Virus genome (UHGV): UHGV-1732475
Length of the DNA stretch: 13,357 bases
Strand: one strand, 5' to 3'
Source: a virus
Position 1 is the first letter of the stretch; each line of letters begins with the position of its first letter. Under the pieces are notes generated by a model, which saw only the letters and a program-made list of their open reading frames with translations, was not told the DNA's origin and searched no databases. A program made the position numbers and the translations under genes. Below are positions 1-13,357 of the stretch, one piece after another.

Positions 1-55
1 AACTGTCATGGAGAATTGAAACTTGTTTAAGACTTTGGCAGCCTACTGTTTTTAA

Positions 56-79
56 GTAACCGGCTCATTTAAACCGTCT
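56..79. repeat. Left terminal inverted repeat of the IS66-family element
   Basis: GTAACCGGCTCATTTAAACCGTCT matches the reverse complement of 2731..2754 (GTAAGCGACTCGTCAGAACCGTAT) at 17 of 24 positions, counted by hand. Confidence 0.6.
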
Positions 80-108
80 GGTCTGTTTCCTCCGGCTCTA
101 CAAAAATA

Positions 109-786
109 ATGTCCATCATTTTTAATGGCCACTATCGTATGAAACACCGGACCTGGATCACTGAAGCTTTACGTCTTCACTTTGAAGAACATTTACCCCG
201 GGTTGTGGCCGGGCGTCGCCTGGGTGTACCAAAATCAACAGTTTGTAGTATGTTCGTGCGCTTTCGGAGAGCTGGCCTTTCGTGGCCTTTGCCCGCAGGC
301 ATGTCGGAGCAGGAACTTGATGCCTGCCTTTACGGACAATTTTCCACGGTACCAGTCGTACGTCCTGAAAGCACCGTTATATCCGAAGCCCCCGTGGTAA
401 AAAAACGTCCCCGGCGGCCCAACTTCCCTTATGAGTTTAAAATCGCCTTAGTGGAGCAGTCACTGCAGCCCGGAGCCTGTGTGGCGCAGATCGCCCGGGA
501 AAACGGAATCAACGATAACCTGCTCTTCAACTGGCGCCATCAATACCGGAAAGGTGGCCTGCTGCCTTCCGGAAAAAATATGCCGGCACTGCTTCCCGTG
601 ACGTTAACGCCGGAGCCGGATAATAAAATCCCGGCCCCCGCACAGGAACCAGAGCAGATAAATACACCGTCCGACAGTCTGTGTTGTGAGCTGGTTCTGC
701 CGGCCGGAACTCTCAGGCTTAAAGGTAAACTGACGCCGGCGTTATTACAGACACTTATCCGCGAAATAAAAGGGAGCAGCCACTGA
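109..786 (+). CDS. tnpA: IS66-family orf1 accessory protein with an IS3/IS911-type helix-turn-helix region in its C-terminal half
   Basis: ATG at 109 and TGA at 784..786 overlapping the next start. The segment FPYEFKIALVEQSLQPGACVAQIARENGINDNLLFNWRHQYRKG resembles the IS3/IS911-type transposase HTH. The start is uncertain because no Shine-Dalgarno sequence precedes 109. Confidence 0.65.
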   Translation: MSIIFNGHYRMKHRTWITEALRLHFEEHLPRVVAGRRLGVPKSTVCSMFVRFRRAGLSWPLPAGMSEQELDACLYGQFSTVPVVRPESTVISEAPVVKKRPRRPNFPYEFKIALVEQSLQPGACVAQIARENGINDNLLFNWRHQYRKGGLLPSGKNMPALLPVTLTPEPDNKIPAPAQEPEQINTPSDSLCCELVLPAGTLRLKGKLTPALLQTLIREIKGSSH

Positions 787-1133
787 TGATATCTCTCCCT
801 GCAGGTTCGCGTATCTGGCTGGTTGCAGGTATCACCGATATGCGAAATGGCTTTAACGGCCTGGCATCAAAAGTTCAGAACGTCCTGAAGGATGACCCGT
901 TCTCCGGACACCTGTTCATCTTCCGCGGACGCCGGGGTGACCAGATAAAAGTGTTGTGGGCTGACAGTGACGGACTGTGCCTCTTCACCAAACGCCTGGA
1001 GCGGGGCCGCTTCGTCTGGCCAGTCACCCGTGACGGCAAGGTGCACCTTACTCCGGCTCAGTTATCCATGCTTCTTGAAGGTATCAACTGGAAGCACCCG
1101 AAACGAACGGAACGCGCTGGAATCCGCATATAA
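786..1133 (+). CDS. tnpB: IS66 orf2-like protein (115 aa)
   Basis: Start overlaps the orf1 stop (TGATG). The size and the segment IWLVAGITDMRNGFNGLA...KVLWADSDGLCLFTKRLERGRF are characteristic of IS66 orf2 proteins, from memory. Confidence 0.85.
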   Translation: MISLPAGSRIWLVAGITDMRNGFNGLASKVQNVLKDDPFSGHLFIFRGRRGDQIKVLWADSDGLCLFTKRLERGRFVWPVTRDGKVHLTPAQLSMLLEGINWKHPKRTERAGIRI

Positions 1134-1152
1134 CCCGTTGTAAAGTGAGGAT

Positions 1153-2724
1153 ATGGACACCTCACTTGCTCATGAGAACGCCCGCCTGCGGGCACTGTTG
1201 CAGACGCAACAGGACACCATCCGCCAGATGGCTGAATACAACCGCCTGCTCTCACAGCGGGTGGCGGCTTATGCTTCCGAAATCAACCGGCTGAAGGCGC
1301 TGGTTGCGAAACTGCAACGTATGCAGTTCGGTAAAAGCTCAGAAAAACTTCGTGCAAAAACCGAACGGCAGATACAGGAAGCACAGGAGCGAATCAGCGC
1401 ACTTCAGGAAGAAATGGCGGAAACGCTGGGTGAGCAATATGACCCGGTACTGCCATCCGCCCTGCGCCAGTCTTCAGCCCGTAAACCGTTACCGGCCTCA
1501 CTTCCCCGTGAAACCCGGGTTATCCGGCCGGAAGAGGAATGCTGTCCTGCCTGTGGTGGTGAACTCAGTTCTCTGGGATGTGATGTGTCAGAGCAACTGG
1601 AGCTTATCAGCAGCGCCTTTAAGGTTATCGAAACACAACGTCCGAAACAGGCCTGTTGCCGGTGCGACCATATCGTGCAGGCACCAGTACCTTCAAAACC
1701 CATTGCACGCAGTTATGCCGGAGCGGGGCTTCTGGCCCATGTTGTCACCGGGAAATATGCAGACCATCTGCCGTTATACCGCCAGTCAGAAATATACCGT
1801 CGTCAGGGAGTGGAGCTGAGCCGTGCCACACTGGGGCGCTGGACAGGTGCTGTTGCTGAACTGCTGGAGCCGCTGTATGACGTCCTGCGCCAGTATGTGC
1901 TGATGCCCGGTAAAGTCCATGCTGATGATATCCCCGTCCCGGTCCAGGAGCCGGGCAGCGGTAAAACCCGGACAGCCCGGCTGTGGGTCTACGTCCGTGA
2001 TGACCGTAACGCCGGTTCACAGATGCCCCCGGCGGTCTGGTTCGCGTACAGTCCGGACCGGAAAGGTATCCATCCACAAAATCACCTGGCCGGTTACAGC
2101 GGTGTGCTTCAGGCCGATGCTTACGGTGGTTACCGGGCGTTATACGAATCCGGCAGAATAACGGAAGCCGCGTGTATGGCTCATGCCCGGAGAAAAATCC
2201 ACGATGTGCATGCAAGAGCGCCCACCTACATCACCACGGAAGCCCTGCAGCGTATCGGTGAACTGTATGCCATCGAGGCAGAGGTCCGGGGCTGTTCAGC
2301 AGAACAGCGTCTGGCGGCAAGAAAAGCCAGAGCCGCGCCACTGATGCAGTCACTGTATGACTGGATACAGCAACAGATGAAAACACTGTCGCGTCACTCA
2401 GATACGGCAAAAGCGTTCGCATACCTGCTGAAACAGTGGGATGCACTGAACGTGTACTGCAGTAATGGCTGGGTGGAAATCGACAACAACATCGCAGAGA
2501 ACGCCTTACGGGGAGTGGCCGTAGGCCGGAAAAACTGGATGTTCGCGGGTTCCGACAGCGGTGGTGAACATGCGGCGGTGTTGTACTCGCTGATCGGCAC
2601 ATGCCGTCTGAACAATGTGGAGCCAGAAAAGTGGCTGCGTTACGTCATTGAACATATCCAGGACTGGCCGGCAAACCGGGTACGCGATCTGTTGCCCTGG
2701 AAAGTTGATCTGAGCTCTCAGTAA
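1153..2724 (+). CDS. tnpC: IS66-family DDE transposase (523 aa) with N-terminal coiled coil and CxxC...CxxC zinc ribbon
   Basis: Long ORF with GAGG just upstream of the ATG. Leucine-rich coiled-coil N-terminus, then CPACGG...CCRCDH zinc-binding motif, then a catalytic core typical of IS66 transposases. Confidence 0.9.
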
Positions 2725-2730
2725 ATATCA

Positions 2731-2754
2731 ATACGGTTCTGACGAGTCGCTTAC
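2731..2754. repeat. Right terminal inverted repeat of the IS66-family element
   Basis: The complement of 2754..2731 begins GTAAGCG and pairs with the left repeat. It lies 7 bp after the orf3 stop at 2722..2724. Confidence 0.6.
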
Positions 2755-2959
2755 GGTCATTCTGCATGGATACGAAAAGATCCGCTGGCCGGATGCACCG
2801 GAGTGGGCGAGCCGGGAAACCTGGCTGGAGTGTGTCCCGGACAGTACCGAACCGTCACCCTCACCGGAACCGGTACCCACGCCTGTTAAAAAACAAAAAC
2901 GGAAGAAAACAGTAACTGACGATGTTAACCCCTGGCTGACTTCCGGAGGATGGTTATGA
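2755..2959 (+). pseudogene. 3' fragment of a terminase large-subunit gene (lambda A position), cut at the IS right end
   Basis: The reading frame is open from inside the IS with no start codon and ends at TGA 2957..2959, overlapping the W-like start (ATGA), the same arrangement as the lambda A/W junction. Encodes ...LHGYEKIRWPDAPEWASRETWLECVPDSTEPSPSPEPVPTPVKKQKRKKTVTDDVNPWLTSGGWL. Identity is inferred from synteny only. Confidence 0.45.
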
Positions 2960-3168
2960 ATCAGAATGATATTGAAGCCATGATTCAGCGTTATACGGAA
3001 GCTGAAATGGCGGTGCTGGACGGAAAATCCGTCACCTTTAATGGTCAGCAGATGACCATGGAAAACTTATCTGAGATCCGGCAGGGACGGCAGGAGTGGG
3101 AGCGCCGCCTTGCGGCTCTGATTACACGACGACGGGGGCATCCCGGGTACCGGCTGGCGAGGTTCTGA
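2956..3168 (+). CDS. W: Head-tail connector protein, lambda gpW-like (70 aa)
   Basis: GGAGGA at 2945..2950 precedes the ATG at 2956. Size and pattern (GKSVTFNGQQMTMENLSEI...RRRGHPGY) resemble lambda gpW, and it sits immediately before the portal gene. The track start at 2950 is too close to the SD. Confidence 0.7.
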   Translation: MNQNDIEAMIQRYTEAEMAVLDGKSVTFNGQQMTMENLSEIRQGRQEWERRLAALITRRRGHPGYRLARF

Positions 3169-4676
3169 TGGCAATTCTTGATGATGTGATTGGCGTTTTT
3201 TCACCAGGATGGAAAGCGGCAAGGCTGCGTTCCCGTGCGGTGATCCAGGCTTATGAGGCCGTAAAAACGACGCGGACACACAAAGCCCGACGGGAGAACC
3301 GAACTGCCGACCAGTTAAGCCAGTACGGGGCCGTGTCGTTACGTGAGCAGGCTCGTTACCTTGATAACAACCACGATCTGGTCATTGGTGTATTTGACAA
3401 GCTGGAAGAACGGGTGGTGGGGAAAAACGGGATTATTGTCGAGCCACATCCGGTATTACGCAATGGGGCCATTGCCCGTGATCTGGCAGCGGAGATACGT
3501 ACCCGATGGAGTGAATGGTCTGTCAGTCCGGAGGTCACCGGGCAGTTTACCCGTCCGATGCTGGAACGTCTGATGCTGCGTACCTGGCTGCGCGATGGTG
3601 AGGTGTTTGCCCAGATGGTTTCCGGGCGCATAAACAGCCTGACGCCTTCTGCCGGTGTTCATTTCTGGCTGGAGGCGCTCGAGCCGGACTTTATTCCCAT
3701 GACCAGTGATGAGAGCAACAGGCTGAATCAGGGCGTGTTTGTTGATGACTGGGGGCGTCCCGAAAAATATCTGGTGTATAAAAGCCGTCCCGTATCCGGA
3801 CGGCAGATGGAAACCAAAGAAGTGGATGCAGAGCGAATGCTGCATCTTAAATTTGTTCGCCGTCTGCACCAGATGCGCGGGACGTCTTTGTTGTCCGGTG
3901 TGCTGATCCGCCTCAGTGCCCTGAAAGAGTATGAAGATTCTGAGCTGACTGCAGCAAGGATCGCCGCTGCTCTGGGGATGTACATCCGCAAAGGCGACGG
4001 ACAGAGCTATGAAACGGATGGTAATGACAGCAAGGAGAATGAACGCGAGCTTACCATTCAGCCAGGCATTATTTACGACGATCTGAAACCCGGCGAAGAA
4101 ATCGGAATGGTGAAGTCGGATCGCCCAAATCCTAACCTTGAAACTTTTCGTAATGGTCAGTTGCGTGCCGTGGCTGCGGGCAGTCGTCTGAGTTTTTCCA
4201 GTACAGCGCGCAACTATAACGGCACTTACAGCGCCCAGCGTCAGGAGCTGGTTGAATCTACTGATGGCTACCTGATCCTGCAGGACTGGTTTATTGGTGC
4301 CGTCACCCGCCCGATGTACCGTGCCTGGCTGAAACAGGCTGTGGTATCCGGTGTTATCAGGCTACCCCGCGATCTGGACCGATCTTCACTGTATACCGCG
4401 GTGTATTCCGGACCGGTGATGCCGTGGATTGACCCTGTTAAGGAGGCTGAGGCCTGGAAAATTCAGATTCGTGGTGGAGCGGCGACAGAATCAGACTGGG
4501 TACGTGCAGGTGGTCGTAATCCAGATGATGTCAAACGTCGGCGCAAGGCCGAAATTGATGAAAACCGCAAGCTGGATCTGGTATTTGATACCGATCCGGC
4601 CAGTGATAAAGGAGGCAGCAGTGCCGCAACGAAACGACAGGAGCCGCAGCACACCGACGACCAGTCCGAAGAATAA
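3168..4676 (+). CDS. B: Portal protein, lambda gpB-like (502 aa)
   Basis: ATG at 3168 overlaps the W-like stop (TGATG). Large protein in the position and size range of lambda portal. The track start at 3096 lies inside the W-like gene and is rejected. Confidence 0.85.
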   Translation: MAILDDVIGVFSPGWKAARLRSRAVIQAYEAVKTTRTHKARRENRTADQLSQYGAVSLREQARYLDNNHDLVIGVFDKLEERVVGKNGIIVEPHPVLRNGAIARDLAAEIRTRWSEWSVSPEVTGQFTRPMLERLMLRTWLRDGEVFAQMVSGRINSLTPSAGVHFWLEALEPDFIPMTSDESNRLNQGVFVDDWGRPEKYLVYKSRPVSGRQMETKEVDAERMLHLKFVRRLHQMRGTSLLSGVLIRLSALKEYEDSELTAARIAAALGMYIRKGDGQSYETDGNDSKENERELTIQPGIIYDDLKPGEEIGMVKSDRPNPNLETFRNGQLRAVAAGSRLSFSSTARNYNGTYSAQRQELVESTDGYLILQDWFIGAVTRPMYRAWLKQAVVSGVIRLPRDLDRSSLYTAVYSGPVMPWIDPVKEAEAWKIQIRGGAATESDWVRAGGRNPDDVKRRRKAEIDENRKLDLVFDTDPASDKGGSSAATKRQEPQHTDDQSEE

Positions 4677-4689
4677 TTCTTGGTTCAGG

Positions 4690-6648
4690 ATGCAGGCAGG
4701 TCACCAGAGTGACGCGGATATTTATATTTATGACGAGATTGGTTTCTGGGGTGTTACGGCGAAGCAGTTTATCAGTGATCTGAATGCACTGGGCGATATC
4801 ACCCACATTAATCTCCATATTAATTCACCGGGTGGCGATGTCTTTGAAGGCATCGCCATTTTTAATGCACTGAAAACACATGGTGCGTCCATTACCGTTT
4901 ATGTCGACGGTGTGGCGGCGTCAATGGCGTCGGTCATTGCGATGGTGGGAAACCCGGTCATTATGCCGGAAAACTCCTTCATGATGATTCATAAACCATT
5001 TGGCTTTACGGGCGGTGATGCGGAGGACATGCGCACCTATGCCGACCTGCTCGATAAAGTTGAGGCGGTTCTGTTACCCGCTTATGCACAGAAAACCGGG
5101 AAAACCACCGATGAAATTGCTGCCATGCTGGCGGATGAGACCTGGATGTCCGGTGCCGAATGTCTGGCACAGGGATTTGCTGATCAGGTGACGCCAGCCG
5201 TTAAGGCAATGGCATGTATTCAGTCAAAACGTACAGAGGAATTTAAAAAGATGCCGGAATCCATTCGAAACATGATTACTCCGCCACGCAACAGTGCTCC
5301 ACGCGTACAGGATGATGAACCTGCAGCCTCCCGGACGCCAGTGCAGGCAGCAGCACCCGTGGTGGATGAAAACAGTATCCGTGCGCAGGTACTGGCAGAG
5401 CAAAAAGCGCGTGTAAACGGTATTAATGATCTGTTTGCCATGTTTGGCGGGCGTTATCAGACGCTGCAGGCTCAGTGTCTTGCCGATCCTGAATGTTCGC
5501 TGGAGCAGGCCCGCGAAAAGCTGTTGAACGAGATGGGGCGCGAGTCCACGCCATCCAATAAAAATACCCCGGCTCATATTTATGCCGGTAACGGTAATTT
5601 TGTGGGGGACGGGATCCGCCAGGCGCTGATGGCGCGTGCCGGATTTGAAAAAACCGAACGTGATAATGTCTACAACGGGATGACCCTGCGTGAATATGCC
5701 CGTATGTCACTGACTGAACGTGGTATTGGTGTTTCCAGTTATAACCCGATGCAGATGGTCGGTGCGGCGTTCACACACAGTACGTCTGACTTCGGTAATA
5801 TTCTGCTGGATGTTGCGAACAAAGCCATTCTGCAGGGCTGGGAAGATGCTCCTGAAACCTATGAACAGTGGACGCGGAAAGGTCAGTTGTCTGATTTTAA
5901 AATTGCCCATCGTGTGGGTATGGGGGGCTTCAGTGCTCTGCGTCAGGTGCGTGAAGGGGCGGAATATAAATACGTCACCACCGGAGATAAACAGGCCACT
6001 ATTGCACTGGCGACCTATGGCGAGCTGTTCAGTATCACCCGTCAGGCCATTATCAATGATGATCTGAATATGCTGACCGATGTCCCGATGAAACTGGGCC
6101 GTGCGGCGAAATCCACTATTGCCGATCTGGTTTATGCCATTCTGACGTCTAACCCGAAAATCTCCACAGATAATGTAAGTCTGTTCGATAAAGCGAAACA
6201 TGCAAACGTACTGGAGAGCGCTGCAATGGACGTGGCATCGCTGGATAAAGCCCGCCAGTTGATGCGCGTTCAGAAAGAGGGGGAGCGTCATCTGAATATT
6301 CGTCCTGCGTTCGTACTGGTACCGACGGCGATGGAGTCTGTTGCTAACCAGGTCATTCGCTCCTCAAGTGTCAAGGGGGCTGACATTAACGCCGGTATTA
6401 TTAACCCGGTGAAAGATTTTGCGACCGTTATTGCAGAGCCTCGTCTTGATGATAACAGCCAGACCACCTTCTACCTGGCTGCGTCAAAAGGCTCCGATAC
6501 GATTGAAGTGGCTTATCTCAACGGTGTGGATACGCCATATATTGATCAGATGGAGGGCTTCAGTGTGGATGGCGTGACAACGAAAGTGCGTATTGACGCC
6601 GGTGTCGCGCCAGTTGATCACCGCGGTCTGGTGAAATGTACGGCGTAA
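4690..6648 (+). CDS. Fused capsid gene: ClpP-like (S14) prohead protease, scaffold-like linker and HK97-fold major capsid protein (652 aa)
   Basis: The N-terminal roughly 180 aa carry ClpP-like motifs (GVAASMAS with the candidate catalytic Ser, MMIHKP with the candidate His). A Pro/Ala/Gln-rich linker follows, then a roughly 350 aa capsid-like C-terminus. Start set to the first ATG after the portal stop (4690); it has a weak SD, so the start is uncertain. Confidence 0.85.
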   Translation: MQAGHQSDADIYIYDEIGFWGVTAKQFISDLNALGDITHINLHINSPGGDVFEGIAIFNALKTHGASITVYVDGVAASMASVIAMVGNPVIMPENSFMMIHKPFGFTGGDAEDMRTYADLLDKVEAVLLPAYAQKTGKTTDEIAAMLADETWMSGAECLAQGFADQVTPAVKAMACIQSKRTEEFKKMPESIRNMITPPRNSAPRVQDDEPAASRTPVQAAAPVVDENSIRAQVLAEQKARVNGINDLFAMFGGRYQTLQAQCLADPECSLEQAREKLLNEMGRESTPSNKNTPAHIYAGNGNFVGDGIRQALMARAGFEKTERDNVYNGMTLREYARMSLTERGIGVSSYNPMQMVGAAFTHSTSDFGNILLDVANKAILQGWEDAPETYEQWTRKGQLSDFKIAHRVGMGGFSALRQVREGAEYKYVTTGDKQATIALATYGELFSITRQAIINDDLNMLTDVPMKLGRAAKSTIADLVYAILTSNPKISTDNVSLFDKAKHANVLESAAMDVASLDKARQLMRVQKEGERHLNIRPAFVLVPTAMESVANQVIRSSSVKGADINAGIINPVKDFATVIAEPRLDDNSQTTFYLAASKGSDTIEVAYLNGVDTPYIDQMEGFSVDGVTTKVRIDAGVAPVDHRGLVKCTA

Positions 6649-6671
6649 ACGTCGCAGACAACAACTCTGAT

Positions 6672-6691
6672 GGCCCGTAAGGGCTTTTTTT
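6672..6691 (+). terminator. Candidate intrinsic terminator just after the capsid gene
   Basis: GGCCC-GTAA-GGGC hairpin (4 to 5 bp GC stem with a GNRA-type tetraloop) followed by seven T residues at 6685..6691, 24 nt after the capsid stop. Confidence 0.5.
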
Positions 6692-6702
6692 GTACCTGAA
6701 AT

Positions 6703-6721
6703 CAGCCCCTGAACGGGGCTG
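6703..6721 (+). other. Stable 7-bp stem-loop in the 5' leader of the next head gene
   Basis: CAGCCCC (6703..6709) pairs with GGGGCTG (6715..6721) around a 5-nt loop. No T-tract follows; the GGAG SD and the ATG at 6735 lie directly downstream. Confidence 0.35.
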
Positions 6722-6734
6722 TGCGGAGACAGTT

Positions 6735-7058
6735 ATGGCAAAGAATTTTGTAGAAGAAGGAAAAACGGTGGCGATTGTTGCCAGTGCAGCCATCAGCAGC
6801 GGAGATCTGGTGCAGGTGGGTGATGTTTTTGCGGTGGCGCTGACCGATATTCCACAGGGTGAAACAGGCGACGGCATGACCGAAGGTGTGTTTATGCTGC
6901 CTAAGCTGAAAACGGATGATATGAAAACGGGTAAGAAGGTTTATCTGAAGTCCGGAAAAGTTCAGCTGACTAACAGTGGCTCTGATCCGCTGGTCGGGGT
7001 TGTCTGGGCAGATGCCGGAACCAGTGCAGAAGAAGTGCCGGTAAAACTCAATGTCTGA
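6735..7058 (+). CDS. Small head protein (107 aa), candidate decoration or cement protein
   Basis: GGAG SD 7 nt upstream of the ATG at 6735. Sits directly after the major capsid gene, is about 11 kDa, and is Gly/Val-rich. Function inferred from position and size only. Confidence 0.5.
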   Translation: MAKNFVEEGKTVAIVASAAISSGDLVQVGDVFAVALTDIPQGETGDGMTEGVFMLPKLKTDDMKTGKKVYLKSGKVQLTNSGSDPLVGVVWADAGTSAEEVPVKLNV

Positions 7059-7326
7059 TCCCTTTTCCCGGCTGGCAGCGCGTATGGATGCGATCACGGT
7101 CAGAAAGATGGGAAAGACAGCCTCGGTTAATGATGTCGATATGACTGTGATCCCGGGAGAAACACTGGCAGAGCTGAATGCTCTGTCCGGACCTGCGGTC
7201 TCTCTGGTGGTGTTTTCTTCGGGATACCGCCCACGGCGCGGGGATCGCGTTGTTTATGACGGACAACAATGGACGGTCACACGGCATGAACGCTTTAACG
7301 GTAAGCCAATGATCTTTATTGAGTAA
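7051..7326 (+). CDS. Head-tail joining protein, lambda gpFII-like (91 aa)
   Basis: Overlaps the preceding gene by 8 nt. The N-terminus FSRLAARMDAITVRKMGKTA and a later RRGD motif resemble lambda FII (FDAAIARADETIRGYMGTSA ... RRGD), from memory. Confidence 0.6.
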   Translation: MSDPFSRLAARMDAITVRKMGKTASVNDVDMTVIPGETLAELNALSGPAVSLVVFSSGYRPRRGDRVVYDGQQWTVTRHERFNGKPMIFIE

Positions 7327-7337
7327 AGAGGTGTGGG

Positions 7338-7928
7338 ATGAAGGGGCTTGAGAATGCCATCCGCAATCTGAACAGCCTTGATACCCGTATGGTGCCACAG
7401 GCCAGCGCATGGGCGATAAACCGTGTGGCACAGAAAGCGGTCTCGGTTGCCACCCGGCAGGTTGCCGGGAATACCGTTGCGGGAGATAACCAGGTGAAAG
7501 GGATCCCCCTGAAACTGGTACGTCAGCGTGTCCGGGTGTTTAAAGCCAGTCCGTCAGGAAAAATGACGGCCAGGATCCGCGTTAACCGGGGCAATCTGCC
7601 CGCCATCAAACTGAACACAACACGGCGGCGTGCTGGTGAAGGACTGAGAGTGGGAAAATACTTTTTCCGGGGGGCATTTGTTCAGCAACTGGCGAATGGC
7701 CGCTGGCATGTTCTTAGGCGTCTTCCTGAAGCGCGTTTTGCAACAGGGCATGACCATCAGGGCAGGCCAAGAAAAAATCGTCTTCCTGTGGAGGTAGTGA
7801 AAATCCCGCTGTCCGGACCGCTGACACAGGCATTTGAAGATGCCCGCGACCGCATCATTGCTGCGGAAATGCCGAAACAGCTGGGGTATGCACTGAAACA
7901 ACAACTGAGGTTATGGCTGACCCGATGA
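7338..7928 (+). CDS. Z: Tail completion protein, lambda gpZ-like (196 aa)
   Basis: GAGGTG SD before the ATG. Strong recalled similarity to lambda Z (KGLE..., AINRVA..., IKVNRG.LP.IKL, GAF.QQL.NGRWHV..R, VVKIP...PLT.AF, LGYAL..QLR). Confidence 0.85.
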   Translation: MKGLENAIRNLNSLDTRMVPQASAWAINRVAQKAVSVATRQVAGNTVAGDNQVKGIPLKLVRQRVRVFKASPSGKMTARIRVNRGNLPAIKLNTTRRRAGEGLRVGKYFFRGAFVQQLANGRWHVLRRLPEARFATGHDHQGRPRKNRLPVEVVKIPLSGPLTQAFEDARDRIIAAEMPKQLGYALKQQLRLWLTR

Positions 7929-8326
7929 ACCGACATACACAAATCCGCCAGGTCGTACTGGCACGCCTTCGGGAACAGTGTGGAGACAGCGCCACGTTTT
8001 TTGACGGGCTTCCGGCATTTATTGATGCGCAGGAACTGCCTGCCGTGGCGGTGTGGCTGAGTGATGCTCAGTACACCGGAAAAATGACGGATGAAGATGA
8101 CTGGCAGGCTGTTCTGCATATTGCCGTCTTCATCCGGGCACAGGCACCGGATTCAGAGCTGGATATGTGGATGGAGAGCACCATTTTTCCTGCCCTGAAT
8201 GATATACCGGCACTTTCCGGACTCATCGACACCCTGATCCCACTCGGTTTTAACTATCAACGTGATAATGAGATGGCCACCTGGGCGATGGCGGAAATCA
8301 CGTACCAGATCACGTACACGAATTAA
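7925..8326 (+). CDS. U: Tail terminator protein, lambda gpU-like (133 aa)
   Basis: ATG at 7925 overlaps the Z stop (ATGA). Motifs ATFFDG, FPAVAVWL, AEYTG, W.A.LHI.VF, PDSELD.WMES, DIPALS and TY.ITY match lambda U as recalled. The track start at 7913 is probably an upstream extension. Confidence 0.85.
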   Translation: MNRHTQIRQVVLARLREQCGDSATFFDGLPAFIDAQELPAVAVWLSDAQYTGKMTDEDDWQAVLHIAVFIRAQAPDSELDMWMESTIFPALNDIPALSGLIDTLIPLGFNYQRDNEMATWAMAEITYQITYTN

Positions 8327-8336
8327 GGAGGTGGCA

Positions 8337-9080
8337 ATGACCACACCAAATCCACTGGCAAAGACGAAAGGTGCGGGGACGACGTTCTGGATGTATACCG
8401 GCAACGGCGATGCGTTTGCGAATCCTTTGTCGGACACTGACTGGCTGCGTCTTGCGATGGTGAAGGATCTGCAACCTGGCGAAATGACCGCTGATGCAGA
8501 AGATGACACTTATCTCGATGATGAAGATGCAGACTGGAAAACGACAACCCAGGGGCAGAAATCCGTTGGTGATACTTCGGCGACGCTGGCCTGGCGTCCG
8601 GGTGACAGCGGGCAGAAAAAACTGGTTCAGTTGTTCGACTCCGGTGAAGTCTGCGCGTTTCGTATCAAATATCCCAACGGTACTGTTGATGTTTTCCGTG
8701 GCTGGCTGAGTTCACTGGGTAAAACCATTGCCTCAAAAGACGTGATGACCCGCACAGTGAAAATCAGCGGTGTGGGGCGTCCGTATCTGGCAGAGGAAGG
8801 CACTGAAACAGTGAGCGTTACCGGGCTGACGGTGGCACCGGCATCTGCCAGTGTAAAAGTGGGAGCAACCACCACGCTGACCTTTACAGTAAAACCTGAC
8901 GGAGCCAGTGACAAAGCGATCAGTGTGCATTCGACAGATCCACAGACTGCCACGGTGACCCTGAACGGGCTTGTGGCCACGGTGAAAGGCGTGAAGCAGG
9001 GCAGTGTCAGCATTGTGGGCATGACTTCTGACGGCGATTTTGTGGCAGTGGCTGCGGTGGCTGTCAGCGCCGCAGGTTAA
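8337..9080 (+). CDS. V: Major tail protein, lambda gpV-like (247 aa) with a C-terminal Big_2-type Ig-like domain
   Basis: AAGGAGGTG SD before the ATG at 8337. Long identical runs with lambda V as recalled (KGAGTT, GDP/AFANPLSD, SYLDDEDADW, FPNGTVDVFRGW). The C-terminal roughly 90 aa are Thr/Val/Ala-rich and Ig-like. The track start at 8262 lies inside U. Confidence 0.9.
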   Translation: MTTPNPLAKTKGAGTTFWMYTGNGDAFANPLSDTDWLRLAMVKDLQPGEMTADAEDDTYLDDEDADWKTTTQGQKSVGDTSATLAWRPGDSGQKKLVQLFDSGEVCAFRIKYPNGTVDVFRGWLSSLGKTIASKDVMTRTVKISGVGRPYLAEEGTETVSVTGLTVAPASASVKVGATTTLTFTVKPDGASDKAISVHSTDPQTATVTLNGLVATVKGVKQGSVSIVGMTSDGDFVAVAAVAVSAAG

Positions 9081-9100
9081 CAGGACGATACTCATCATTT

Positions 9101-9124
9101 GCCCCGGTTATTCGGGGCTTTTTT
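9101..9124 (+). terminator. Candidate intrinsic terminator between V and G
   Basis: GCCCCG (9101..9106) pairs with CGGGGC (9113..9118) around a GTTATT loop, followed by TTTTTT at 9119..9124. It lies 20 nt after the V stop and 14 nt before the G start. Confidence 0.6.
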
Positions 9125-9137
9125 ACAGGTGGAGAAC

Positions 9138-9527
9138 ATGATGTTTCTGAAACAGGACACGTTTAATTATGAAAAACAGTCCGTGGTGCTCAGTGAGCTG
9201 TCCGGGCTGCAGAGAATTGAATATCTGACGTTTGTTCAGCAGCGAACGGCAAAGTTTGATGCCGGGGAGGGAGAACTGCCGGAGGCTGAACGACAGATTG
9301 CTTTTCTGCGGATGGGGATGGATATCAATGCCTGGCTGGTTTCCCGCTCACTGTGGAATGCGGAACAGTCTCAGGATGTTGAGACGCTTTACGCATCCGT
9401 TATTACAACATGGTCGTATGATGCCCTGGGAGCGGGGGCGGAGATGGTTCTGTCGCTGAGCGGTATGGGAGCCATTGAGAATGCCGGGGATTTGGAGCAT
9501 GAGGTGCTGACGCCGGAAAAGTCCTGA
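9138..9527 (+). CDS. G: Tail assembly chaperone, lambda gpG-like (about 129 aa)
   Basis: Tandem ATG codons at 9138 and 9141 after a GGAG SD; either could be the start. The N-terminus MFLKQDTF...VLSELSGLQRIEYL resembles lambda G (MFLKTESF...TLSELSALQRIEHL). Stop TGA at 9525..9527. Confidence 0.8.
   Translation: MMFLKQDTFNYEKQSVVLSELSGLQRIEYLTFVQQRTAKFDAGEGELPEAERQIAFLRMGMDINAWLVSRSLWNAEQSQDVETLYASVITTWSYDALGAGAEMVLSLSGMGAIENAGDLEHEVLTPEKS
9515..9521 (+). other. Putative -1 programmed frameshift slippery heptamer G_GAA_AAG for the G-T fusion
   Basis: Zero-frame codons are CCG GAA AAG TCC TGA. The -1 frame is open from 9503 through 9853, so the shift must occur within 9503..9524. GGAAAAG is the only slippery-looking heptamer there and differs by one base from lambda's GGGAAAG. 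Confidence 0.45.
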
Positions 9528-9853
9528 CGCGGGAAATGCAGTTTGTCATGCGGCTTGCCCGGGAGTTCCGGCGGGCAGACTGGCGGCGGATGCTGTCGGA
9601 AATGTCGGCCACTGAGCTTGGTGAGTGGGGCGATTATTTCCGGATGCAGAGCTTCAGTGATGTGTGGATGGATGCGCAGTTTGCCTCGCTGAAGGCATTG
9701 ATCGTGAGAATGGTGTCCGGCAGCAGTGATGCTGCGGTGGCTGATTTCAGCCTTTTACCGGAAGAGAACGGGATACCGGAGCGAACGGACGAAGAACTGA
9801 TGCATCTTGGGGAAGGTATTTCCGGAGGTGTGCGTTATGGACCAGATAGCTAA
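9521..9853 (+). CDS. T: T-like C-terminal extension reached by -1 frameshift from G, giving a G-T fusion of about 237 aa
   Basis: The ORF track shows 9536..9853 in the -1 frame relative to G, and that frame is open back to 9503. The position between G and the tape measure gene, with a 17-nt overlap onto the tape measure start, matches the conserved G/GT arrangement in long-tailed phages. Confidence 0.7.
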   Translation, partial: VLTREMQFVMRLAREFRRADWRRMLSEMSATELGEWGDYFRMQSFSDVWMDAQFASLKALIVRMVSGSSDAAVADFSLLPEENGIPERTDEELMHLGEGISGGVRYGPDS

Positions 9854-12800
9854 CCTGGTCATTGATTTGGGGATTGATGCGGCAGAGTTTAAAAATGAAA
9901 TTCCCCGTATCAAAAACCTTCTGAATGGTGCAGCCAGCGATGCAGAACGGTCTTCTGCCCGTATGCAGCGTTTTATGGAGCGTCAGACTCAGGCCGCCCG
10001 GCAGACAACGCAGGCGGCGTCTTCGGCTGCAACAGCCGCATCCGTCCATGCGCAGACGGTGGAGAAGAACGCACAGGCTCATGAACGCATGGCCCGCGAG
10101 GTGGAGAAAACCCGCCAGCGTATGGAGGCACTGAGCCAGAAAATACGCGAGGAACAGGCGCAGGCCATGGCTCTGGCGGAGGCTCAGGATAAAGCGGCTG
10201 CCGCGTTTTATCGTCAGATTGACAGTGTGAAACAGGCCAGTGCGGGGCTGCAGGAATTACAGCGTATTCAGCAGCAGATCCGACAGGCCAGAAACAGTGG
10301 CGGGATTGGTCAGCAGGATTATCTGGCGCTGATTTCTGAGGTTACGGCGAAAACCCGTGTTCTTACACAGGCTGAGGAAGAGGCTACCCGACAGAAAGTG
10401 GCGTTTATCCGTCAGCTTAAAGAGCAGGCAACCCGCCAGAATCTTTCTTCTTCTGAGTTGCTTCGTGCCAGGGCTGCCCAGCTGGGGGTAAGCAGTGCTG
10501 CAGAAGTGTATATCCGCAAAATGGAGCAGGCAGGAAAAGCCACGCATTCGCTGGGTCTGAAAAGTGCAGCGGCCCGTCAGGAGATAGGCGTTCTGATAGG
10601 TGAACTGGCCCGCGGAAATTTAGGTGCGCTGAGGGGATCCGGAATAACGCTGGCTAACCGTGCCGGGTGGATAGACACACTGATGTCACCGAAAGGCATG
10701 ATGCTTGGCGGGGTTATTGGCGGTATTGCCGCGGCCGTCTATGGTCTGGGTAAAGCCTGGTATGACGGTCAGAAGGAGGGGGAAGAATTTAACCGCCAGC
10801 TGTCACTGACGGGGCATTATGCCGGAGTCACTGCCGGGCAGCTGTGGACGCTCAGTCGTGCTATTTCCGGGAATGGTATCACGCAACATGCTGCAGTCGG
10901 TGCGCTGGCTCAGGTGGTGGGGAGTGGTGCATTTCGTGGAAACGATATCGGTATGGTGGCGAGAGCTGCCGCACAGATGGAGCGATCGGTTGGCCAGTCG
11001 GTCAGCGATACCATAAGTCAGTTTAAGCGGCTGAAGGATGATCCTGTAAATGCCGCGAAGGCTCTGGACAATGAGCTGCATTTTCTTACTGCCACTCAGC
11101 TTGAGCAGATACGCGTCCTTGGGGAACAGGGGCGGTCCAGTGATGCGGCACGGATAGCCATGTCTGCACTGGCAGAGGAAACCGGTCGACGTACTGCGGA
11201 TATTGATAATAACCTCAATGCGCTGGGCAGTACGCTGAAGTATCTGTCTGATTTATGGAGTCGTTTCTGGGATGCGGCCATGAATATTGGTCGTGAAGAT
11301 TCGCTGGATGCGCAGATTGCCACTTTGCAGGAGAAAGTGTCGCGGGCGAAAAGACTCCCCTGGACGGCATCATCTTCTCAGGTTGAATACGATCAGCAGC
11401 GTCTTAACGATCTTCAGGAGAAAAAACGCCAGAAGGATTTGCAGGATGCAAAAGAGCAGGCAGAGCGGAATTATCAGGAGCAACAGAAACGCCGTAATGC
11501 TGAAAATGCTGCACTGAACCGGATGAATGAAACGGAAGCTGCACGACATCAGCGTGAAATTGCGCGTATTAATGCCATGCAGTACGCCGATCAGGCTGTC
11601 AGGGATGCGGCGATACAACGTGAAAATGAACGTTACGAGAAAGCCCTGGCATCCGGTAAGAAAAAAACACGCGAAACCCGTAATGATGAGGCCACCCGGT
11701 TATTGCTGCAGTACAGCCAGCAACAGGCACAGGTGGAAGGACAGATTGCTGCTGCAAGACAGTCAGCAGGCATTGCCACTGACAGGATGACAGAAGCGCA
11801 TAAACAGCTTCTGGCTCTGCAGCAGCGCATCAGCGATCTGGACGGGAAAAAACTGACGGCAGATGAAAAGAGTGTGCTGGCCCGTAAAGATGAACTGATT
11901 CAGGCACTGACGCTGCTGGATGTAAAACAGCAGGAGCTTCAGAAACAGACGGCACTCAACGATCTGAAGAAAAAAACAATTCAGCTGACCAGTCAACTGG
12001 CTGAAGAAGAGCGCGCTCAGCGTCAGCAACATGACCAGGATATCGCCACGGTGGGTATGGGTGATCAGCAGCGGCAGCGATATCAGGTACAACTGAGTCT
12101 TCGCCAGAAATACCAGCAACAGCTGGAGCAGTTGAGGCGGGATAGTGAGCAGAAAGGGACATATAACACGGATGACTACAGAAAGGCCGAGCAGGCGCTG
12201 ACGGAGAGCCTGAACCGACAACTGAATGAGAATCGCCGTTACTGGCAACAGCTTGAAATTGCTCAGGGTAACTGGAAAAACGGAGTCCTGCGTGCATTTC
12301 AGGATTTTACCGTGGATGCAGATAATACGGCAGAAACAGCAGAACAGGTGTTCTCGTCAGCCTTCAGCAACATGGGAAATGGCCTGGCAACTTTTGTCAC
12401 TACCGGCAAACTCAATTTCAAATCCTTCACCTCTTCTGTGCTGTCAGATATGGCGAAAATCCTGGCGCAGGCAACCATGATGAAATCGATAAAAGGGATT
12501 GGCAGTGTACTGGGATTTGATCTCAGCAGCCTTTCCCTGAATGCCAATGGGGGGATTTATCAGTCTGCTGATTTGAGTCGTTACAGTGGCACGGTGGTTA
12601 ACCGTCCGACGTTTTTTGCTTTTGCAAAAGGCGCGGGTGTGATGGGGGAAGCTGGACCTGAAGCCATTCTGCCACTGCGTCGTGGTGCTGACGGTAAGCT
12701 GGGGGTTGTGGCGGATATTGGTGGTTCAGGTATGGCGATGTTTGCCCCGCAGTACAACATCGAGATCAATAACGATGGCACGAACGGGCAGATAGGTCCG

Positions 12801-12902
12801 GCTGCCCTGAAGGTGGTTTATGACCTTGGGAAAAAAGCGGCAGCGGACTTTATGCAACAGCAGGCCCGTGATGGTGGTCGGTTAAGTGGAGCATATCGGT
12901 AA
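9837..12902 (+). CDS. H: Tail tape measure protein, lambda gpH-like (1021 aa)
   Basis: GGAGG SD 8 nt before the ATG at 9837; the track start at 9807 is a TTG. N-terminus MDQIANLVIDLGIDAAEF resembles lambda H (LVVDLSLDAARF). Long Gln/Ala/Glu/Arg-rich coiled-coil body, an internal hydrophobic segment, and a C-terminus with NNDGTNGQIGPAALK.VYD matching lambda H. Confidence 0.9.
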   Translation: MDQIANLVIDLGIDAAEFKNEIPRIKNLLNGAASDAERSSARMQRFMERQTQAARQTTQAASSAATAASVHAQTVEKNAQAHERMAREVEKTRQRMEALSQKIREEQAQAMALAEAQDKAAAAFYRQIDSVKQASAGLQELQRIQQQIRQARNSGGIGQQDYLALISEVTAKTRVLTQAEEEATRQKVAFIRQLKEQATRQNLSSSELLRARAAQLGVSSAAEVYIRKMEQAGKATHSLGLKSAAARQEIGVLIGELARGNLGALRGSGITLANRAGWIDTLMSPKGMMLGGVIGGIAAAVYGLGKAWYDGQKEGEEFNRQLSLTGHYAGVTAGQLWTLSRAISGNGITQHAAVGALAQVVGSGAFRGNDIGMVARAAAQMERSVGQSVSDTISQFKRLKDDPVNAAKALDNELHFLTATQLEQIRVLGEQGRSSDAARIAMSALAEETGRRTADIDNNLNALGSTLKYLSDLWSRFWDAAMNIGREDSLDAQIATLQEKVSRAKRLPWTASSSQVEYDQQRLNDLQEKKRQKDLQDAKEQAERNYQEQQKRRNAENAALNRMNETEAARHQREIARINAMQYADQAVRDAAIQRENERYEKALASGKKKTRETRNDEATRLLLQYSQQQAQVEGQIAAARQSAGIATDRMTEAHKQLLALQQRISDLDGKKLTADEKSVLARKDELIQALTLLDVKQQELQKQTALNDLKKKTIQLTSQLAEEERAQRQQHDQDIATVGMGDQQRQRYQVQLSLRQKYQQQLEQLRRDSEQKGTYNTDDYRKAEQALTESLNRQLNENRRYWQQLEIAQGNWKNGVLRAFQDFTVDADNTAETAEQVFSSAFSNMGNGLATFVTTGKLNFKSFTSSVLSDMAKILAQATMMKSIKGIGSVLGFDLSSLSLNANGGIYQSADLSRYSGTVVNRPTFFAFAKGAGVMGEAGPEAILPLRRGADGKLGVVADIGGSGMAMFAPQYNIEINNDGTNGQIGPAALKVVYDLGKKAAADFMQQQARDGGRLSGAYR

Positions 12903-13231
12903 TGGAGACGTTTCACTGGAAAGTGCGCCCGGATATGAATGTGGTATCAGAGCCGAAAGTGGTGACAGTGAAGCTGGGCGATGGTTATGAACAGCGTCGT
13001 GCGGCGGGACTGAATAACCAGTTGTCGACTTACAGCGTGACGATACGTGTTCGTAAATGTGAACACCCATCTTTGAAAGCCTTTCTGGAACGGCACGGTG
13101 GCGTCCGCGCATTTCAGTGGACGCCACCTTATGACTGGAAGCCGATCAGGGTGGTTTGTCGTAAATGGTCGGCAAGCGTGGGGGCGCTGTGGGTAACCAT
13201 AACGGCAGATTTTGAACAGGTCGTGGCATAG
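12902..13231 (+). CDS. M: Minor tail protein, lambda gpM-like (109 aa)
   Basis: Start overlaps the tape measure stop (TAATG). Very close recalled match to lambda M (TFRWKV.P.M.V, VKLGDGY.QR..AGLN, TYSVT, HGG, WTPPY.W, AEFEQVV). Confidence 0.9.
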   Translation: METFHWKVRPDMNVVSEPKVVTVKLGDGYEQRRAAGLNNQLSTYSVTIRVRKCEHPSLKAFLERHGGVRAFQWTPPYDWKPIRVVCRKWSASVGALWVTITADFEQVVA

Positions 13232-13240
13232 GAGGCCCTG

Positions 13241-13357
13241 ATGCAGGATATTCCACAGGAAACACATCATGAGACGACACGCCTCACTCAGTCAGCCCAG
13301 GTGGTGCTCTGGGAAATCGATCTGACAGAGGTCGGTGGTGAACGTTATTTTTTCTGT
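13241..13357 (+). CDS. L: Minor tail protein, lambda gpL-like, 5' partial (39 codons before the window ends)
   Basis: GGAGG SD at 13231..13235 before the ATG. MQDIPQETHHETTRLTQSAQVVLWEIDLTEVGGERYFFC is nearly identical to the lambda L N-terminus as recalled. Confidence 0.9.
   Translation, partial: MQDIPQETHHETTRLTQSAQVVLWEIDLTEVGGERYFFC

Follow-up and report, generated by a model that had tools for sequence, protein, structure and literature searches.

In classical Hfr formation, F and the chromosome recombine through IS elements that are common to both. A comparable role is documented for ISCro1, an IS66-family element with a published length of 2,699 bp (PMC12115866): homologous recombination mediated by this element has been shown experimentally to fuse an IncF plasmid with another replicon (PMC12115866). 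The same work, like the survey reported below, finds an 8-bp duplication as the normal product of ISCro1 insertion (PMC12115866). Here we describe a copy of ISCro1 that is flanked on the left by IncF-plasmid DNA and on the right by the end of a prophage terminase gene.

Results

The window, i.e. the whole stretch of 13,357 bp that was analysed, is the entire contig NODE_338_length_13357_cov_3.547211 of ENA assembly ERZ724092, and no sequence exists to the left of position 1. It is a SPAdes-style contig from a short-read metagenome, with a k-mer coverage of about 3.5x (cov_3.547211). The element and its parts are located as follows:

56..2754, plus strand: complete ISCro1 (IS66 family), 2,699 bp (RefSeq annotation of matches, sequence comparison)
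56..77, plus strand: left terminal inverted repeat, GTAACCGGCTCATTTAAACCGT (repeat detection)
109..786, plus strand: tnpA, 225 aa, with HTH_Tnp_1 (Pfam, gene call)
786..1133, plus strand: tnpB, 115 aa, with TnpB_IS66 (Pfam, E 5e-40)
1153..2724, plus strand: tnpC, DDE transposase, 523 aa, with LZ_Tnp_IS66, zf-IS66, DDE_Tnp_IS66 (E 2.5e-103) and DDE_Tnp_IS66_C (Pfam)
2733..2754, minus strand: right terminal inverted repeat, reverse complement GTAAGCGACTCGTCAGAACCGT (repeat detection)

RefSeq labels the matches to this element 'IS66-like element ISCro1 family transposase'. The tnpA-tnpB-tnpC trio, the inverted repeats (arms of 22 nt, 73% complementary, both starting with GTAA), the length and the sequence are those of IS66/ISCro1; the family trait that the copy at 56..2754 does not display is the 8-bp target duplication. 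When compared with the commonest E. coli copy (found in L002, L003, L005 and others), a single mismatch was observed, which is synonymous and located at position 129. Positions 56 and 2754 recur as the start and the end of many E. coli matches, and sister copies with perfect duplications have the same terminal bases. The ends that an earlier note on this DNA had inferred for an IS66-family element were therefore correct.

The DNA on the two sides of the element is of different origin:

1..55, no strand assigned: IncF-plasmid backbone fragment, intergenic, between the hok/srnB-DUF2726 side and the finO side (sequence identity)
48..55, no strand assigned: left 8-bp flank GTTTTTAA, presumed half of a duplication from insertion into the plasmid (mismatch to the right flank)
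2755..2762, no strand assigned: right 8-bp flank GGTCATTC, presumed half of a duplication from insertion into the large terminase gene, terL (sequence, terL alignment)
2755..2959, plus strand: start-less 3' remnant of terL, 67 codons and a stop (identity to L004)
2956-3168, plus strand: 70-aa protein in the gpW position, the first intact phage gene after the junction (gene order)
3168-4676, plus strand: lambda-family portal (gene order)

The GC content is 34.5% for positions 1-55, 55.2% for the IS and 53.4% for positions 2755-13357, so the contrast between a left end of about 35% GC and the phage genes, pointed out in the earlier note, was reproduced. The left 55 bp are identical over their full length (55/55) to at least 494 E. 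coli records; of their 513 places in complete E. coli genomes, 501 are on plasmids. In plasmid L002 the 55-mer occupies positions 4001-4055, where it continues with TACACCCAATAAGG, and the gene context is repA, hok, DUF2726, the 55-mer, finO, traX and traI; this is F-type plasmid sequence between the RepFII/hok region and finO-tra. Judged by sequence identity, positions 1..55 are thus IncF-plasmid backbone, neither phage nor chromosome. On this side the earlier note had expected the terminase gene to continue, or DNA of the phage or the chromosome to follow, and this expectation failed.

On the right side, positions 2755-2959 correspond to the last 205 of the 2,103 bp of terL and are 100% identical to positions 9001-9205 of L004, whose annotated terL spans 7103-9205. 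The earlier reading of this segment as a start-less terminase 3' fragment was thereby borne out. Comparison with related intact prophages, which the same note had proposed, showed that homology starts exactly at the IS end (position 2755, L004 9001); in terL coordinates, the right junction is at nucleotide 1898/1899. The intact homologue (700 aa) carries GpA_ATPase (PF05876) and GpA_nuclease (PF20454) domains; no Pfam domain was found in the 67-aa translation of the remnant, which lies past the nuclease domain. The assignment to a GpA-type terL agrees with the arrangement, collinear with the 3' end of the intact gene and followed by the gpW-position gene and the portal.

Of the 7,324 places at which the phage segment occurs, 7,293 are chromosomal, and the 'plasmid' matches to the late region in PLSDB are mostly chromosomes that were mislabelled or phage circles. 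On sequence grounds, the 2755-2959 segment comes from the terL of a lambdoid prophage that is common in E. coli and chromosomal in almost all records. The idea that the phage segment is by default carried by an IncF plasmid was rejected, as the late region is essentially never found on genuine plasmids. A second truncated terL was observed within the same phage family, in L083. No coincidence was found between the right end of the contig and the variable sites among related prophages.

As the earlier note had stated, the 8 bp outside the two ends of the element differ, GTTTTTAA on the left being unmatched by GGTCATTC on the right. A duplication of at least 6 bp was sought with either IS boundary moved by up to 6 bp, and none was detected. 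Three sister copies of ISCro1 are bordered by perfect 8-bp duplications, namely TGTTAAAA in L001, AATAAATG in L002 and TTCTGGAG in L003. Among the 41 full ISCro1 copies surveyed, 32 possess an 8-bp duplication and nine have none; the copy without duplication is thus a real observation, but it is not rare. Since the duplication is present in 32/41 other copies, the lack of one here is a matter of what happened to this copy, or in the assembly, and has no bearing on whether the element belongs to the family. Hybrid flanks also occur around ISCro1 elsewhere, an example being L054, whose right flank is the duplication of L023.

Four junctions are possible: the plasmid 55-mer joined to the left end of the IS; the right end of the IS joined to GGTCATTC and the terL 3' part; …GAGGCTCTGGTCATTC joined to the left end; and the right end joined to GTTTTTAATACACCC. 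Among 5,426 complete E. coli genomes, none gave a contiguous match to either observed junction. Both were also absent from IMG/VR and the GTDB representatives, as was the observed left junction from PLSDB and the observed right junction from the JGI metagenomes. The top matches in these searches were in two pieces, the 55-mer being separated by 111-565 bp from another ISCro1 site. There is thus no independent sighting of the junctions in the collections searched. The predicted parental and reciprocal junctions (terL…GGTCATTC joined to the IS, and the IS joined to GTTTTTAATACACCC) gave no match in the 5,426 complete E. coli genomes; the three matches with more than 80% coverage corresponded to the known insertion 130 bp downstream. 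Among E. coli genomes with any ISCro1 end sequence, these ends occupy a median of one place per genome.

Discussion

As the left flank is IncF backbone (ending in …CTGTTTTTAA at the element) and the right flank is terL (beginning with GGTCATTC…), the two flanks originate from two different ISCro1 insertion sites. The reading that we rank first, narrowly ahead of an assembly chimera, is that an intact ISCro1 with hybrid flanks marks a physical junction, a plasmid-borne ISCro1 and the prophage being linked through the IS; we give it a probability of roughly 0.45. That the flanks lie on one DNA molecule in a cell is what we infer, as is the route by which they met. The contig passes from one unique flank to the other across the element, as would be expected if the IS were present only once in the assembly graph; the junctions would then be physically linked.

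The physical junction could have arisen in two ways. Either RecA-dependent recombination would have taken place between the plasmid ISCro1 copy and a copy already present in terL, or a cointegrate would have formed as the plasmid copy transposed into terL; other material may subsequently have been lost after either event. By both routes terL would be split, each IS copy would have one 'foreign' flank without a matching 8-bp duplication, and the locus would be left unable to make the large terminase. A more specific form of this reading, in which ISCro1 links an IncF plasmid of a gut E. coli to a lambdoid prophage's late operon, terL being the site of an Hfr-like integration, is possible at somewhat less than even odds. 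If true, the replication side of the plasmid would be joined directly to a full complement of head and tail genes that lacks the terminase.

Against a physical junction stands the lack of an independent sighting of either junction in the collections searched. Furthermore, if two ISCro1 copies are present, the assembly graph is identical for a cointegrate and for two separate simple insertions, of which the latter are far commoner a priori. The contig alone cannot separate joining in the cell from joining in the assembly graph. The 2.7-kb IS is longer than a short-read insert and no read pair spans it, so that direct evidence of flank linkage is absent from the contig, and the assembly itself may have created the hybrid flanks. 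In such a case the sample would contain ISCro1 in two unremarkable insertions, into an IncF plasmid at GTTTTTAA and into terL at GGTCATTC, both with 8-bp duplications of their own. The identical IS copies would have been collapsed, and metaSPAdes would have threaded a path from the plasmid left flank through the collapsed IS edge to the prophage right flank; the missing duplication would then not be biological. We regard this as a serious contender, if short of an even chance. The usual, default largest k of metaSPAdes is 55. The plasmid flank is exactly 55 bp long, which shows that the contig starts at a graph vertex branching at the IS boundary and that its plasmid part is only a k-mer overlap. 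The IS is moreover the consensus copy common to plasmid and chromosomal copies, which would therefore collapse, and the proper duplications of 32/41 ISCro1 copies and the failure to see either observed junction independently point the same way. However, de Bruijn assemblers such as SPAdes normally break at the ends of an unresolved multi-copy 2.7-kb IS and do not run through it, and ISCro1 is often single-copy in a genome. A chimera also needs three entities (an occupied plasmid, an empty-site plasmid or another branch at 1-55, and an occupied terL), and the parental junctions that it predicts were likewise not found in complete E. coli genomes.

The earlier note had proposed that an IS-associated deletion or rearrangement removed the 5' part of terL and possibly more. 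On this model, an adjacent deletion or intramolecular rearrangement within one molecule would have removed upstream phage DNA as well, leaving a single IS between an old and a new flank. The missing duplication, the cut of terL exactly at the IS end, a contig running through a single-copy IS and the other truncated terL of this phage family (L083) are in keeping with such an event. Its old flank, however, would be IncF backbone and not phage or chromosome, so that either an IncF plasmid must first have integrated beside the prophage or the phage late region must have been on a plasmid, and it is essentially never found on genuine ones. The left 55 bp hence speak for a join of two replicons and not for a deletion within the prophage. 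What stands of the proposal is that this is no simple insertion and that the 5' 90% of terL is absent from the junction; the deletion confined to the prophage does not. We consider it unlikely, and it amounts to a more complex version of the physical junction, not an independent explanation. A simple insertion with mis-set ends, concealing a true 8-bp duplication at corrected boundaries, has virtually no chance of being right: it is refuted by the terminal bases shared with the three sister copies and their perfect duplications, by the offset scan and by a left flank (1..55) that is not terminase.

The terL at this locus cannot be functional. Whichever explanation holds, the right junction, in which the right end of ISCro1 abuts terL nucleotide 1899, suggests a disrupted terminase gene in the strain that was sampled. 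That the prophage is cryptic is a reasonable conclusion only given a physical junction, or given an ISCro1 in terL in whatever arrangement, and the right junction alone suggests the latter. Either outcome is ordinary. A physical junction would be a further example of IS-mediated replicon fusion and of prophage inactivation by an IS, both already well documented, including for ISCro1. An artefact would serve as a warning that an IS without duplication in a short-read metagenome contig should not be taken for a rearrangement unless there is read-level evidence. The significance of the locus therefore goes little beyond quality control.

With respect to known systems, the contig resembles the repeat-induced chimeric contigs of de Bruijn assemblies in having a repeat longer than the insert, low coverage and an end that overlaps a neighbouring edge by exactly k; compared with known cases, its chimerism is a possibility only. 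The element shares with known ISCro1 its length, tnpA/tnpB/tnpC, its inverted-repeat termini and, but for one synonymous base, the sequence of the commonest E. coli copy; it differs from an ordinary ISCro1 by the absence of the 8-bp duplication and by flanks from different replicons. E. coli L5_E1779_ETEC (L001) and strain 98232 (L003) have the same IS in the same orientation and the same phage module, with ISCro1 in the terminase region, and in L001 it also lies in the terL 3' end, 130 bp downstream of the window's junction. These two are simple insertions, with the duplications TGTTAAAA and TTCTGGAG and phage DNA on both sides, unlike the window. The ISCro1-mediated IncF/IncHI1 plasmid fusion (PMC12115866) is similar in that the IS lies between IncF DNA and another replicon, without a matching duplication. 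In comparison with that fusion and with Hfr formation, the window holds one of the two expected junctions, on a short-read metagenome contig, and a prophage terL takes the place of a second plasmid as the partner of the IncF DNA.

Structure and identity of the insertion element

Elements matching positions 56..2754 of the window are annotated as ISCro1 in RefSeq, and the published ISCro1 length of 2,699 bp (PMC12115866) is equal to that found here.

Features of the element and of its right border
56..2754, + strand: complete IS66-family element (ISCro1), 2,699 bp
56-77 and 2733-2754: imperfect terminal inverted repeats of 22 nt, GTAA at the start of both
109-786, same strand as tnpB and tnpC: tnpA (Pfam HTH_Tnp_1)
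786-1133, same strand as tnpA and tnpC: tnpB (Pfam TnpB_IS66)
1153-2724, same strand as tnpA and tnpB: tnpC (Pfam LZ_Tnp_IS66/zf-IS66/DDE_Tnp_IS66/DDE_Tnp_IS66_C)
2755-2959: terL (large terminase gene) 3' remnant, 100% identity to the last 205 bp of L004 terL

When the element was compared with 36 other full copies, a single private difference from the commonest sequence was observed, a synonymous A-to-C change at 129 (tnpA codon 7, GGA to GGC; 0/36 other copies). Most of the listed E. coli matches also lack this change, their alignments ending at 128. The change could be a genuine marker of the strain, or else an error caused by low coverage. As only this synonymous difference separates it from the commonest copy, the element looks fully functional, judging by its sequence.

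Absence of a target duplication

Three other ISCro1 copies were read base by base, in a prophage of the same family in E. coli L5_E1779_ETEC (L001), in the IncF plasmid p1-S1-IVC-02-A (L002) and in a second such prophage in strain 98232 (L003). Their terminal bases were identical, and they were bracketed by the perfect 8-bp duplications TGTTAAAA, AATAAATG and TTCTGGAG, respectively. In the window, the left flank GTTTTTAA does not match the right flank GGTCATTC, and no repeat of at least 6 bp was found when either boundary was moved by up to 6 bp. Since the ends agree with those of the sister copies and the offset scan was empty, mis-set ends were excluded, and the missing duplication pointed out in the earlier note was confirmed. 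The element is an ISCro1/IS66 member by every structural criterion except the target duplication, a feature that reflects the past of an individual insertion and does not characterize the family.

Among ISCro1 copies from IMG/VR and the three loci just described, 41 had both flanks readable; a perfect 8-bp duplication was present in 32 and absent from nine, so that the state without duplication is that of a minority and no rarity. Some of the nine are clearly hybrid: the right flank of the IMG/VR copy L054, which has no duplication of its own, is the site duplicated in L023 (GAATGACA). Two further copies without duplication (L026 and L027) share their left flank and differ in their right one. 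Copies with hybrid flanks, or joins made during assembly, occur repeatedly with ISCro1.

Origin of the two flanks

Bases 1-55 are neither phage nor terminase, and are identical (55/55) to IncF plasmids. This 55-mer occurs at 513 places in 5,426 complete E. coli genomes, 501 of them on plasmids, and its low GC content (34.5%) is explained by its plasmid intergenic origin. On p1-S1-IVC-02-A, it has repA-hok-DUF2726 on one side and finO-traX-traI on the other, and is followed by TACACCCAATAAGG… for 111 bp and then by the differently placed ISCro1 of that plasmid.

From 2755 to its end, the window shows 99.66% identity with prophages in many E. coli chromosomes. Compared with the closest prophage, that of strain 1428 (L004), which was read in detail, it has 35 substitutions and a single 1-bp indel. 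The indel is an extra G at 6672, in the intergenic gap that separates the protease-capsid gene from the DUF2190/cement gene, and leaves the reading frames unaffected. Homology begins at base 1899 of the 2,103-bp gene (7103-9205) annotated as phage terminase large subunit, where the intact gene reads …GCCGAGGCTCT directly upstream of GGTCATTC; a 70-aa gene, the portal, a protease-capsid fusion and tail genes follow. Thus, each flank is half of a separate ISCro1 target site, the left one of a site on an IncF plasmid and the right one of a site in terL.

The start-less terminase fragment reported earlier was correctly recognized: the remnant has no in-frame start codon and gave no match in a Pfam search, while intact homologues contain GpA_ATPase and GpA_nuclease domains. 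As it codes for just 67 of 700 residues, those at the C terminus, the large terminase would be inactivated. Downstream of the remnant, the head and tail genes have kept their open reading frames intact. With terL cut at nt 1898/1899, this prophage copy would probably be unable to package DNA, as previously proposed.

Seven of 36 differences from L004 fall within 46 bp (9026-9071) of the tail tube gene (8337-9080), in its C-terminal portion, which is Ig-like (Big_2); this cluster looks like a small recombination patch. Among relatives, L083 (7536-9792; GCA_002587005.1, CP023815.1) has just a 370-aa terL remnant with GpA_nuclease only. A second protease-capsid gene and a D5-primase/SSB module stand before it, an arrangement suggesting that terL took up a satellite-like or rearranged insert. 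Gene calls are missing at the expected terL of L087 (7691-9789) and at the expected protease-capsid fusion of L089 (11509-13393) in otherwise collinear prophages, suggesting pseudogenes.

Joining of the flanks

The window is identical to the whole contig NODE_338_length_13357_cov_3.547211 of ENA assembly ERZ724092, a SPAdes-style short-read metagenome contig with about 3.5x k-mer coverage; its tape-measure protein was found on two contigs only in a collection of 15 billion proteins, and this one is the longer of the two. The default largest k of metaSPAdes is 55, and contigs from a de Bruijn graph open with the complete k-mer of the vertex at which they start. With a plasmid flank of exactly 55 bp, the branch in the graph must coincide with the IS boundary, so that bases 1-55 represent no more than an overlap with the neighbouring plasmid edge. 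The plasmid-IS and IS-terL junctions are each backed by overlapping k-mers; flank-to-flank linkage across 2.7 kb is beyond the reach of short reads. Since k-mers span the IS-GGTCATTC junction, the sampled strain very probably has an ISCro1 in its terL, at nt 1898/1899, regardless of what adjoins the element on the left.

We favour, narrowly and with a probability of about 0.45, a joining of the flanks in the cell. Two ISCro1 copies would have undergone homologous recombination with each other, or the plasmid copy would have formed a cointegrate, possibly with a subsequent deletion. ISCro1-mediated recombination was experimentally shown to fuse an IncF plasmid with another replicon (PMC12115866). 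In complete E. coli genomes that contain any, the ISCro1 end sequences occupy a median of one place per genome, which also counts for in-cell joining. Unresolved repeats usually stop assemblers, so a contig passing through the IS suggests a single copy.

This last point speaks against the alternative, in which the assembler crossed a collapsed repeat and paired the wrong flanks. In view of the low coverage, the metagenomic source and a plasmid flank of exactly k, that reading is nevertheless only slightly less probable than joining in the cell. With two IS copies, a cointegrate and two simple insertions give the same graph, and simple insertions are far commoner. Furthermore, neither observed junction was sighted independently: both were absent from complete E. 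coli genomes, IMG/VR and GTDB representatives, the left one from PLSDB and the right one from JGI metagenomes. The predicted parental and reciprocal junctions were likewise not found in complete E. coli genomes. The adjacent deletion within one molecule suggested in the earlier note is unlikely, because plasmid and prophage would have had to share a molecule beforehand and the phage region is essentially never found on real plasmids. The note's view that this is not a simple insertion is supported; its proposal that the 5' part of the terminase gene, and possibly more, was removed was not borne out.

Comparison with known insertions

In the same prophage family, L001 carries a simple ISCro1 insertion in terL, 130 bp downstream of the window junction, and L003 one in a small-terminase-like DUF1441 gene.

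ISCro1 sites in the terminase region of the prophage family
L001, 6138-8836: terL, duplication TGTTAAAA
L003, 4001-6699: DUF1441 gene, duplication TTCTGGAG
Window, 56-2754: terL nt 1898/1899

Three sites in one terminase region could reflect chance, both elements being common, or a slight preference for this region. Fusion of an IncF plasmid with the prophage inside terL, if physically real, would be of mild interest only. Hybrid flanks on IS copies, fusion of replicons through IS elements and assembly chimeras caused by repeats are all familiar, and the window junction is nothing new in kind.
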